A stretch of 64,000 nt of DNA from assembly GCA_035625915.1 (NCBI GenBank), contig DASPOR010000039.1, positions 24,983-88,982 on the forward strand. The letters run 5' to 3'. Shown piece after piece: positions 32,512 through 36,301 of the stretch. The position numbers and the translations under genes are program-made. Every line of letters begins with the position of its first letter. Position 1 is the first letter of the stretch. The notes under the pieces are model-generated. The model was not told the DNA's origin. It worked only from the letters and a program-made list of their open reading frames with translations, and did not search any database. This DNA comes from Alphaproteobacteria bacterium (GTDB lineage Bacteria; Pseudomonadota; Alphaproteobacteria; JACZXZ01).

Positions 32512-33369
32512 TCAGAAGAGGTTTATCGAGTTCCAGGTCTTTGCAATGAACGAGTCGTCGTTCTTTGTTGCTACACCGGTGTCACGATCGACTTTGACGT
32601 TCTCGACCAACTGATAGCTGTCGACGTACCACTGGCTGCGGGGGTAGTTGTACCCAAGCACGGCCGCCGTCTTCTTCGCTTCGTCGACGACGCCAAGCGC
32701 CATGTAACATTCGACGAGGCGATGGAGTGCTTCCGGCACCTGGGTCGTCGTTTGGTATTTGTCGACCACGGTCTTAAAGCGGCTGATCGCTGCGACGTAG
32801 GCCCCGCGCGTCTCATAGAAGCGGCCGACCTCCAACTCCTTGCCCGCGAGATGATCTCTTACGAGGTCGATCTTGCGGCGTGCGTCCTTGGCATAGGGCG
32901 TATCCGGGTAGCGGCGAATCAACTCCTCGAGCGAGGTAAGCGCCTGATCGGCGTTGGTCTGATCGCGCTCCACGTCGGTCACCTGCTCATAATAGGAGAG
33001 CGCCTTGAGGTAGTAGGCGTAGGCGATGTCACGGTTGCCCGGATGGAGTTGGATGAACCGGGTGAGCGCGTTGATGGCCTCTTGATAATTATTGTCCTGA
33101 TAGAGCGCATAGGCGGACATGAGCTGCGCCTTTGTCGCCCAAATCGAATAAGGGTGCTGACGCTCGACCTCGTCGAACGCCTTGGCCGCCGCCGGGTAGC
33201 GTTGCTCCGCCAACGCGTCCATGCCCCTGTTGTAAAGAGTGTTGACCGGCTCCTCGACGTACTTATCCTTTTCATCGTCGCCGGAGCAAGCGCCGAGCGC
33301 AAACAACGCAAGGGCCAAGCCTGCGCACGCGAGCATGCGTCTCGCTGCACCGCCTCGAATCCTTACCAT
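32512..33369 (-). CDS. bamD: Outer-membrane protein assembly factor BamD (TPR lipoprotein)
   Basis: Lipoprotein signal MVRIRGGAARRMLACAGLALALFALGAC followed by the YfiO/BamD TPR fold. The canonical lpxC-bamD-recN neighbourhood is conserved. Confidence 0.85.
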   Translation of the reverse strand: MVRIRGGAARRMLACAGLALALFALGACSGDDEKDKYVEEPVNTLYNRGMDALAEQRYPAAAKAFDEVERQHPYSIWATKAQLMSAYALYQDNNYQEAINALTRFIQLHPGNRDIAYAYYLKALSYYEQVTDVERDQTNADQALTSLEELIRRYPDTPYAKDARRKIDLVRDHLAGKELEVGRFYETRGAYVAAISRFKTVVDKYQTTTQVPEALHRLVECYMALGVVDEAKKTAAVLGYNYPRSQWYVDSYQLVENVKVDRDTGVATKNDDSFIAKTWNSINLF

Positions 33370-33567
33370 CGAACCCACTGTCTTGCGCAACCCCTGCCCG
33401 GTCTAATTTGCGGGGCCGATTGTCTCAGCCCCTGACGCTTGCCTTCTTATAGCACGATAGATTGCGTTGCCATAGGCTTGCGGTCGTTCAAAATCGACGC
33501 GCCACGGTGATCCCGCAGGATAAAACTCGATAATATTGACGTTCGGCCCGACAGTCGTCGAGGTCGA

Positions 33568-34500
33568 TCAGGCGGACGCCGCCATCGGCTGGCGATCCTG
33601 GCTATGCGGACTAACGGCCTCACGACCTTCGAACGGAACGAGGCGCCACGCGTCGCGGTCGGCAAACAGCGCGCGCAACAACTTGTTATGCATGCCGTGG
33701 CCTGAGCGGAAGCCGTGGAAATGGCCGATGACAGGTGCGCCCGCGAGGGAGATATCCCCTACGGCGTCGAGGACCTTGTGGCGGACGAATTCGTTCTCGT
33801 AGCGCAACCCGTCCGGATTCATGACCCGATCTCCGTCGACGACGACGGCGTTATCGAGCGAGCCGCCGAGGGCCAGTCCCGCAGCGCGCAGCTTCTCGAC
33901 GTCCTCGACGAAGCCGAACGTGCGCGCTCGTGCGATTTCGTTCTTGAACGCGCCGTTTTGCAGCGAGACGAAATATTCCTGGCGCGCCACGGCACTCGCC
34001 TCGAAATCGATCTCGAAGCTGATCGAGAACCCACTGCTCGGCGTGAACGATGCCATGGCTTCGTGATTACCGACGGCGACATGCTTCAGCACTCGAATGG
34101 CCTGTCTCGGTGCAGCCTGCTCGACGATGCCCGCGCAATCGATCAGGAACACAAACGGTGCGGAGCTTCCGTCCATGACCGGAACCTCGGCCCCATTGAG
34201 TTCGATGACGAGATTATCGATGTGGCAGCCGGCCACCGCCGCAAGAAGATGCTCGACCGTGCCGATCTTGACGGGACCGTGCTTGCCGGGAGCCTCAGCA
34301 CCGAGCGTGGTGCACATGCGGGTATCGACGACGTGCCGCCAAGTGGCGGGGATCTTGACCCCACCGCCCGAGAGATCGATGCGACGGAAAGCGACGCCGG
34401 TGTTCGGCTCAGCCGGCAATAGCGTCATCGTGACTTTCTGTCCGGAATGCAAGCCGATGCCCGAGCAACTGATCGGGGTCTTCAGGGTTCGTTGGAAAAT
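33568..34500 (-). CDS. lpxC: UDP-3-O-acyl-N-acetylglucosamine deacetylase LpxC (start non-canonical; see findings)
   Basis: The conserved N-terminus [26 protein letters not shown] aligns to E. coli MIKQRTLKRIV.... No in-frame ATG/GTG/TTG lies there. Candidate ATT at 34500-34498 is preceded by AAGGGGAGA. The alternative TTG at 34641 adds 47 rare-codon residues. Confidence 0.85.
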
Positions 34501-34650
34501 ATTACAGTCTCCCCTTGGATCGACGCTCAGGACCGTCGATGGCCCATTGCGACTTAAAATGTTTGTTTCCGGTCTGCTCCGGTCCCCACGGGCGACCGAG
34601 TGCTTCGATGACTCTTTACCAATGGTCCGCGAAGCACTCAAATCACCTTT

Positions 34651-34670
34651 TGTTACGGATTGTTACCGGT
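34651..34670. promoter_or_regulatory. Motif tGTTACGGATTGTTACCGg in ftsZ-lpxC spacer (copy 2 of GTTACGGATT...GTTACC element; GTTAC direct repeat at 10-bp spacing)
   Basis: Read directly from the sequence. Shares core with the element upstream of ftsZ at 36331-36352. Confidence 0.35.
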
Positions 34671-34702
34671 AGAACATTGCATTCTCAATAACTTACGCTA
34701 CC

Positions 34703-36301
34703 CTAGTTAGCTTGGCGGCGGAGAAACGCGGGGATCTCCAGGAGGTCGTCGTCTCCTTTCGAAGTTGCAAGCCGGTCACTGGGATCGAGCCCCCCAAGGC
34801 GAGGTTGAGATGGTGTCGCCGGCTCGTGCTGGGGTTCGGGTGCCCTGCGCGTTCCACCCGTCACTTTATTGAATAGACCCGCCATGCCCCGGCGTACCTT
34901 GCCTGGCTCCACGGCCATTGAACCGTGGGCCGCCTCGGCGGATGGAACACCACGCGCCGCGATTTCCTCCACCGCGGCCGCAAGCTCCGGCTCATGGGCC
35001 GTGAAAAATTCGGACTGCACGTTGGGCGCTGCAGCTGTCGCCGAGACGCGTTGGGTAGGTGCAGGCTTGATCGTGGCCGAAGCGGGGGCCGCCGCCGCCC
35101 GAACCGGTGGTGCTGTGGGTGCAGTCGGTACAGCCACGGGGATTGGGGCGAGTGCCGGCTCCGCTCCCGTGGCGACAATCTGCGGCGCTTCGGCCGCAGC
35201 ACGGATGACGCGGAGTGGCTCGCTCGCCACGGCCGGCGCTTGAACCGGCTGCGGCGCTGCCGCCACGATCGTACGGGGCGCTGGGCGATCGCTGACGAGG
35301 ACGGGCCGAAGCGGCTTCGGCTGCTGGACGGCTGCGGCATCGATACCCGTTGCGACGACGGACACGCGCACGCTGCCGTCCAGGTGCTCATCGAATGTCG
35401 AGCCAAAAATGATGTTCGCTTCGGGGTCGACCTCGTCGCGGATTCGATTCGCCGCCTCGTCGACCTCGAAGAGCGTCATGTCCATGCCGCCCGTGATATT
35501 GATGAGGACTCCCTTGGCCCCCTTCATCGACACGTCGTCGAGAAGCGGGTTCGAGATCGCGGCTTCGGCGGCATCGAGCGCCCGCCGCTCGCCCTGAGCC
35601 TCGCCGGTGCCCATCATCGCCTTCCCCATTTCGCTCATCACCGTGCGAATATCGGCGAAGTCGAGATTGATAAGGCCGGGCATGACCATGAGATCGGTGA
35701 CGCCGCGCACGCCGGAATAGAGAACGTCATCCGCCATCTTGAAGGCGTCGGCAAAGGTCGTCTTCTCATTGGCGACGCGGAAGAGGTTCTGATTGGGAAT
35801 GATGATCAGCGTGTCGACGAATTGCTGGAGTTCTTCAATCCCCTGTTCGCCGATGCGCATGCGGTGCTGCCCTTCGAAATGGAAAGGCTTGGTCACCACG
35901 CCGACAGCGAGGATGCCACGCTCGCGTGCGGCGCGCGCGATGACGGGTGCGGCCCCGGTGCCGGTCCCGCCACCCATTCCCGCGGTAATGAATACCATAT
36001 GAGCGCCGTCAAGATACTCGAGGATGGCGTCGAGGCCCTCCTCGGCGGCGGCGCGACCAACGTCCGGTCGGGAACCCGCACCCAATCCCTGGGTAACGCT
36101 CAGCCCAAGCTGGATGCGGCGATCCGCCTTCGAGAGCGCCAACGCCTGCGCATCCGTGTTGCAGGCGAGGAACTCCACTCCCTCGAGGTTGGCGGCGATC
36201 ATGTTGTTGACGGCGTTGCCGCCAGCGCCGCCGACGCCAATTACAACAATGCGCGGCTTCAGCTCATGAGCCGGCTCAGGCACGGATAGGTTGATGGTCA
36301 T
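34703..36301 (-). CDS. ftsZ: Cell division GTPase FtsZ
   Basis: Tubulin signature GGGTGTG, long alphaproteobacterial C-terminal linker, GGAGG SD 8 nt upstream of ATG at 36301. The ORF-finder extension to 36502 is Arg-rich junk. Confidence 0.95.

Follow-up and report, generated by a model that had tools for sequence, protein, structure and literature searches.

LpxC, the UDP-3-O-acyl-GlcNAc deacetylase, carries out the committed step of lipid A synthesis. In enterobacteria it is controlled post-translationally by FtsH, LapB and YejM, and in E. coli its level is critical and is set by FtsH/LapB proteolysis, whereas how alphaproteobacteria set the level of LpxC is, to our knowledge, largely unknown. 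The DNA analyzed here, referred to throughout as the window, is a stretch of 64,000 nucleotides from an Alphaproteobacteria bacterium (GTDB lineage JACZXZ01; assembly GCA_035625915.1, contig DASPOR010000039.1, positions 24,983 to 88,982), whose minus strand carries ftsZ, lpxC and a gene for a BamD/YfiO-like lipoprotein, in that order. A preliminary description of the sequence had pointed out that lpxC has no conventional start codon where its homology begins, and had offered two readings, namely, initiation at an AUU codon behind a strong Shine-Dalgarno (SD) sequence or an unusual N-terminal tail reaching up to a TTG at 34641. Our comparison with related genomes indicates that the lpxC genes of the window and of at least 19 relatives most likely begin at this rare ATT codon, preceded by a strong SD.

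A clade of related lpxC loci

Scanning one genome per species yielded 80 lpxC loci, nine of which (L001-L009) encode proteins with 74-93% identity to the LpxC of the window, the next best matches reaching at most 63%. All nine close relatives are unclassified soil metagenome-assembled genomes (MAGs) named “Alphaproteobacteria bacterium,” and the affiliation with Rhodospirillales/Acetobacteraceae assumed in the preliminary description is tentative. A metagenome scan with a conserved upstream 22-mer added three new sequences, and seven others came from a protein search with subsequent contig look-ups, giving a clade set of 20 distinct sequences, the window included, with pairwise LpxC identities of 69-98%. 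The region from -230 to +90 around the ATT is unchanged in four independently assembled contigs from other samples, and the missing canonical start is therefore not an assembly error. Among the 80 loci surveyed, the ATT arrangement described below is confined to this clade.

The ATT codon and its Shine-Dalgarno sequence

Compared with solved LpxC structures, the window protein aligns over residues 2-300 (E ~1e-92), with the N-terminal strand and the GxGLHSG motif included, and the Pfam family PF03331 is present in its homologues. Homology starts at I-F-Q-R-T-L-K. Since residue 2 (F) falls opposite K3 of the P. aeruginosa enzyme in the alignment to solved structures, the ATT codon corresponds to Ile2 of MIKQRTLK, which bears out its earlier placement at the Met-Ile position of E. 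coli. The canonical starts of other lineages lie one to three codons before the conserved Gln, and the ATT lies two codons before it. GTG serves as the canonical start in L020 and ATG in L034, L044, and L049, with the ATG of gamma- and betaproteobacteria one codon further up; ATG or GTG starts of other lineages are found at the codon of the ATT or at the preceding one.

ATT occupies the codon aligned with 34500-34498 in 20/20 clade sequences. A degenerate amino acid is invariant in 140 columns of our codon alignment, and in only 11 of them is the codon invariant as well; ten of these codons end in G or C, the preferred codon ending in these GC-rich genomes, and the single one ending in A or T is the ATT. 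In the four other invariant Ile columns, by comparison, ATC accounts for 71/80 codons and ATT for 6/80, and ATT makes up 17% of the Ile codons in the genes of the window. Given the invariance of this ATT, set against ATC elsewhere, the third-position T is under selection as a nucleotide, a pattern that an ordinary Ile codon would not account for.

The preliminary description had also noted a strong SD 7 nt before the ATT, which we confirmed as AAGGGGAGA (Table 1). A strong G-rich SD precedes the ATT in every clade sequence, with duplex energies between -7.8 and -12.4 kcal/mol and a spacing of 2-7 nt, while an SD of such strength at usable spacing is found at about 2% of random window positions. 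The distance from the G-rich tract to the ATT is 10, 12, or 14 nt depending on the lineage, these being non-triplet differences, and the tract gives rare codons when read as such (CGA/AGG, GGG/GGA). Because its frame is not constant and its codons would be rare, what is conserved in the tract is the nucleotide sequence and not an amino acid sequence. On the 3' side of the ATT the pattern is that of a coding sequence, with conserved amino acids and varying third positions; the first 24 residues after the ATT are kept despite synonymous changes and match the beginning of the solved LpxC structures, which excludes a downstream start.

Taken with the orthologue alignment presented below, in which three relatives have no canonical start between the nearest in-frame stop and the ATT, the invariant ATT and SD support the AUU-initiation candidate, and we consider it quite probable that translation of lpxC in the window starts at ATT 34500-34498. 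Some observations weigh against this interpretation. Codons ending in A or T are somewhat favored near gene starts in general, which could contribute to the preference for ATT, although it would not explain an invariance of 20/20; the support, moreover, comes from the comparison of sequences. Further points of this kind, which concern the canonical codons of some relatives and one of the stop codons, are taken up with the alternatives. A scan of the other long open reading frames (ORFs) of the window gave no convincing candidate for a non-canonical start.

Table 1. Features of the lpxC region in the window
Feature	Position	Strand	Basis
Proposed lpxC coding sequence (310 codons from the ATT, plus stop)	33568..34500	minus	ORF limits, LpxC homology
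Proposed ATT (AUU) initiation codon	34498..34500	minus	ATT in 20/20 distinct clade sequences
SD AAGGGGAGA, 7 nt before the ATT	34508..34516	minus	Duplex with the 16S 3' end, -8.2 kcal/mol
Putative 5' untranslated leader, most of the 47-residue “extension”	34501..34606	minus	5' end predicted only
Predicted -10 hexamer TAAAGA	34613..34618	minus	Spacing of TA from TTGnnn in 56/57 sequences
Predicted -35 hexamer TTGAGT, including the TTG start of the preliminary description	34636..34641	minus	TGA.TTG invariant, n = 57
Inverted repeat/hairpin around the -10, arms GAGTGCTTCG / CGAAGCACTC	34591..34647	minus	Minimum free energy -30 kcal/mol, z = -4.85
Two direct repeats GTAACAA, 10 bp apart, abutting the -35 on its upstream side	34650..34666	minus	G..A.A invariant, n = 57
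Internal ATG used by gene callers (286-residue truncated product)	34426..34428	minus	286-residue form in protein collection
Stop codon of ftsZ, the gene upstream of lpxC	34703..34705	minus

The lipoprotein gene downstream of lpxC, of the BamD/YfiO type with tetratricopeptide repeats, lies at 32512-33390 on the minus strand; PF13525 is found in related loci, and the order ftsZ-lpxC-bamD is kept in every clade locus examined. At the C-terminus, LpxC ends in a conserved non-polar tail (33571-33582, minus strand, in the window) that follows an otherwise variable region, its variants in the clade members read being MAASA, AAASA, VAASA, VAATA, and LAASA, with one RAASG.

Alternative translation starts

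The only in-frame ATG, GTG, or TTG between the ATT and the upstream stop is TTG 34641-34639, 47 codons above the ATT, named in the preliminary description as the first conventional start. A start there, giving LpxC a 47-residue N-terminal tail, would use a frame that is open for 54 codons in the window and also open from the homologous TTG in L003 and L009, and tails are common elsewhere, since many other alphaproteobacterial LpxCs (L012-L068) appear to have 8-28 additional residues at the N-terminus, starting at canonical codons behind good SDs. The combination of a kept frame, coding-type codons, and an SD found in those lineages is nevertheless not found in the window. Its 47-codon stretch has a G+C content at third codon positions of 0.57, versus 0.77 in 37 long ORFs of the window, and a codon log-odds score of -0.27, versus 0.38 +/- 0.12 for 47-codon windows inside genes, a value 5 standard deviations lower and matched in only 0.13% of such windows; the stretch, whose codon usage had already been called atypical, is non-coding by composition. 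Nor is a conserved 47-residue extension seen among orthologues. The upstream region of the relatives contains indels that are not multiples of three, including a 1-nt indel between the window and the 93%-identical L001; the frame is shifted in L002, L004, and L006; and in L005, L007, L081, L089, L093, L096, and L097 it is interrupted by a stop 5-31 codons before the ATT (7-9 codons in L005 and L081), with no ATG, GTG, or TTG between stop and ATT in L007, L093, and L097. A qualification concerns L007, whose in-frame TAG sits in a GCTAGC palindrome, so that a base-calling error is possible there, and whose contig naming suggests a long-read assembly. The TTG itself is present as described, but the AAGGTGA offered as its SD ends 1 nt before it (GGTGA-T-TTG) and lies within the stem of a -30 kcal/mol hairpin, and the two therefore do not form a usable SD/start arrangement. 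This TTG is instead the invariant TTG of a TTGnnn-N17-TAnnnn element (56/57 sequences), mostly out of frame with lpxC or separated from it by stops, and the 357-residue product that it would yield is absent from the protein collection, so that no gene caller on record chose this start for the window sequence. We accordingly regard a TTG-initiated tail as very improbable, the unshared upstream frame favoring the ATT.

Of the remaining possibilities, the one with most in its favor is that the true start of the clade is an NTG codon a few codons upstream of the ATT (M-R-G-E-E-x-I-L-Q...), with the G-rich tract then being coding. In 13/20 sequences an ATG, GTG, or TTG is found in frame 4-7 codons before the ATT, and in two more 8-9 codons before it, a frequency above the ~5% per codon expected by chance; in loci including L002-L006, L008, L081, L088, L089, L091, L095, and L096 it is found 12-21 nt upstream of the ATT, and in most bearers it adjoins the 5' side of the SD. 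TTG and ATG are swapped at this position between close relatives (L005/L088, L089/L091), which is how true start codons behave, and PGAP and Prodigal choose these codons. Species bearing such a codon might thus use it instead of, or besides, the ATT. Yet no well-placed SD precedes the NTG codons themselves (energies are -1.5 to -5.9 kcal/mol, or the spacing is poor), their position varies from -4 to -9, the G-rich tract has neither a constant frame nor common codons, and no NTG is present in at least four lineages of three subclades, among them the window, L007, L093, and L097. These four would have lost the codon and would use ATT, or another near-cognate codon, only secondarily, a scenario that leaves the ATT in 20/20 sequences unexplained and would still require ATT initiation in the window; both the NTG start for the clade and its secondary loss strike us as improbable, if less so than the TTG-initiated tail. 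From the sequences, an upstream NTG is a possible second start in some species, giving an isoform longer by 4-7 residues, and offers no alternative for the window. Starts downstream of the ATT, at ATG 34428 (286 residues) or TTG 34452, use the nearest canonical codons and are the ones annotated, with 286- and 287-residue forms in the databases for the window and L007 and many other clade representatives listed at 281-288 residues; since they would remove 16-24 conserved residues, including QRTLK...SGIGLHSG with the first strand and the GxGLHSG motif of the solved structures, and since neither codon is preceded by an SD, we give them hardly any credence. The ATT might also be kept for a reason other than initiation, such as local pairing of the SD in the mRNA (GGAG...AUUCUCC) or a bias toward A/T-rich codons at the 5' end. 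Most sequences do have ATT-CTC-CA after the SD, and GGAG can pair with CUCC, but the pairing spans 4 bp only, CUCC is missing in the window (TTC) and in the L008-type sequences L008, L096, and L097 (ACC or CCT), the neighboring codons have no A/T preference, and the four lineages without NTG would be left with no start codon, all of which makes this explanation a very slim prospect. Initiation at the ATT is the reading that we retain.

Annotation of LpxC in databases and other lineages

The ATT start has most likely led gene callers to mis-call lpxC. Within single 90% clusters the protein is called at anything from 286 to 354 residues, and cluster representatives (P0001-P0054) can be as short as 248; at least half of the cluster representatives of the clade appear to be cut at an internal Met, without the conserved N-terminus. 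Recognizing the ATT start would correct database entries that are missing the first 24 conserved residues.

Two observations were made on start codons outside the clade. The lpxC of Thalassospira has a GTG at -23 codons with an SD of -9.1 kcal/mol. In L033, a CTG behind a good SD occupies the place of the ATT, and the sole canonical start in frame there is preceded by a weak SD.

A promoter-like element upstream of lpxC

The 23 nt around the TTG (GTAACAAAAGGTGATTTGAGTGC, 34656-34634) are invariant in the window and its nine genome relatives, and with few substitutions the element occurs upstream of lpxC in 57 distinct alphaproteobacterial sequences from lineages that include Rhodospirillales-type bacteria, Kiloniellales, Thalassospira, Sneathiella, Caenispirillum, Oleisolibacter, and others. 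Its consensus over these 57 sequences is nnnnGTAACAATCnGTAACAAAGAGTGATTTGAGnGnnTCnGGGnnnnTTGnTAAA, the invariant positions being G..A.A in both repeats and TGA.TTG. The element can be written as GTAACAAT-N3-GTAACAAAGAGTGATTTGAG, followed by TA 17 +/- 1 nt after TTGnnn, and spans 34591-34666 on the minus strand of the window; in L010-L065 it is found ~90-270 nt upstream of lpxC. In 56/57 sequences a TA dinucleotide comes 16-18 nt after TTGnnn, the spacing being exactly 17 nt in 42. In L039 the element stays with lpxC, with no ftsZ found within 3 kb upstream.

Judging from the spacing and conservation of the two hexamers, we think it reasonably likely, with less assurance than for the ATT start, that the element is a sigma-70-type promoter, with TTGAGT (34641-34636) as the -35, TAAAGA (34618-34613) as the -10, and 17 nt between them, and with a transcription start predicted near 34606. 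In its TTGAGT, 17-nt spacing, and (G/T)(C/T)TAAA(G/C)A, the element fits the consensus forms of alphaproteobacterial sigma-70-type promoters, which are TTGACGS-N10-14-GCTANAWC in Caulobacter and CTTGAC-N17-CTATAT in S. meliloti. It differs from ordinary alphaproteobacterial promoters in being far more conserved and in having the two GTAACAA repeats, with their invariant G..A.A, and a covarying inverted repeat in 40/57 sequences. Weighing against the assignment, both the promoter and the transcription start are predictions from consensus, and a strict E. coli-type promoter scan misses the element, because its second hexamer has no T at position 6, and picks instead TTGAGA, 18 nt, AACAAT at 34688-34659; given that different choice, the promoter is a feature that we infer. 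By its sequence context, the TTG with its AAGGTGA appears to belong to the promoter-like element and not to a competing ribosome-binding site.

In 40/57 sequences the -10 is enclosed by the inverted repeat with 10 or more base pairs, 4-6 pair types occurring at most positions and the arms differing between lineages while remaining complementary; in the window the hairpin also has a lower stem, GGTGATT / GGTCGCC. Hairpins were analyzed per sequence, MAFFT having misaligned them, and no structure emerged when the 57 upstream regions were folded to an RNA consensus. The covariation of the arms thus suggests a hairpin formed in RNA, for instance in ftsZ read-through transcripts, or in single-stranded DNA. 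Its candidate roles in RNA may be in ftsZ read-through or as a terminator or processing site; alternatively, it may act in DNA. The putative leader taken alone (34501..34606) has no significant structure (z = +0.63).

Other readings of the element were considered and rejected. A leader peptide starting at the TTG, or an RNA leader containing the mini-ORF GTG-ATT-TGA, was dismissed because neither frame nor stop is conserved and the 17-nt spacing holds also in lineages without the hairpin. The resemblance to the 16S rRNA 3' end (CGTAACAAGGTA) was judged to be coincidental. To go by their sequence, the GTAACAA repeats resemble a binding site of an OmpR/PhoB-type response regulator, but they do not match the TGA-N8-TGA motif of CenR (PMC9275681) or, for ChvI, the motifs TTGC-N3-GCAA (PMC9731502) and GCC-N8-GCC. 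Rfam 15 gave no match at E <= 1 in positions 33300-35000 of the window, and 10 related loci were likewise without a match at E <= 0.1. In the literature search, the sequence strings of the element matched unrelated primers only, and no paper joining CenR and lpxC was found.

Separately, three Kiloniellaceae MAGs (L027, L032, and L035) share a long leader, TTTTTGGGGGATTCCTGCTC ... GAGTCTGGAGTCTCGTTTTC, ~75-170 nt after the promoter-like element and well upstream of the lpxC start, with no Rfam match, and a shorter motif made of a U-run and a G-run, TTTGGGGGA, recurs in many other lineages.

Discussion

AUU is an inefficient start codon in E. coli, where IF3 discriminates against it and where an excess of LpxC is harmful. 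In the mechanism that we propose from the sequences, the 30S subunit would bind the SD AAGGGGAGA and place the AUU in the P site, where it would be read by the initiator tRNA, so that the protein would begin with fMet at the ATT codon. The product would be a 310-residue LpxC with the N-terminus M-F-Q-R-T-L-K, one residue shorter than in E. coli and P. aeruginosa, while the 141 nt between TTG 34641 and the ATT are non-coding and would comprise, in this order, the 5' leader, the sigma-70-type promoter, and the inverted repeat that surrounds the -10. If infC and pcnB are taken as a guide, the AUU could act as a built-in throttle, giving low LpxC synthesis per mRNA and making it sensitive to IF3, and the strong SD would partly compensate for the inefficient codon.

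AUU or ATT initiation is known for infC, pcnB, ebpA, and a few other genes, to which the comparative data would add lpxC; a literature search found no report of AUU/ATT initiation for lpxC. The AUU start of infC, which encodes IF3, is a rare start codon on an essential gene and is conserved across many species (PMC5499595, PMC6868393). Like infC, lpxC is an essential gene with a conserved AUU start, but it belongs to another pathway, and whereas the AUU of infC completes a loop of autoregulation, lpxC would receive IF3 as an input from outside. The label “infC-like,” used in the preliminary description, holds for the start codon and cannot carry IF3 dependence or autoregulation. When looked for within the window in order to check its start codon, infC was not found.

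In E. coli, the AUU start of pcnB restrains poly(A) polymerase I, an enzyme harmful in excess (PMC2939334). That of lpxC would likewise sit on an enzyme harmful in excess; unlike the pcnB start, which was described for E. coli, it is clade-wide, down to 69% protein identity, and has an unusually strong SD. The ebpA gene of E. faecalis has an ATT start and was first annotated at a downstream ATG (PMC4447247), and in Deinococcus deserti non-canonical starts were found by N-terminal proteomics (PMC2830850). With ebpA, lpxC would share a non-canonical start, mis-annotation by standard pipelines, and an expression that is lowered or tuned; the starts of ebpA and D. deserti are experimentally proven, while the ATT start of lpxC is proposed from comparison of sequences.

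Compared with the control by FtsH, LapB, and YejM, which acts through proteolysis, the control proposed for lpxC would act at translation initiation. The clade tail (...AASA) recalls the C-terminal degron of the E. coli enzyme, and this non-polar tail may be a proteolysis signal; given its conservation, proteolytic control may coexist with the translational one. Langklotz et al. (2011) reportedly found FtsH control of LpxC not to be conserved in alphaproteobacteria. In a wider proposal for this soil clade, which we advance tentatively and think rather doubtful, the AUU throttle with its over-strong SD would tie LpxC output to IF3 and ribosome status, linking outer-membrane synthesis to translational capacity and supplementing or replacing FtsH/LapB proteolysis, and the promoter, almost unchanged across Alphaproteobacteria, with its GTAACAA repeats and covarying hairpin would be the site of an envelope regulator.

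The promoter-like element, which many Alphaproteobacteria share and Rfam does not contain, offers a lead of its own toward envelope regulation. As for the start codon, lpxC would be a rare example of conserved AUU initiation beyond infC and pcnB, and, if true, an inefficient start codon checked by IF3 and kept down to 69% protein identity would provide a concrete mechanism by which these bacteria set their level of LpxC.

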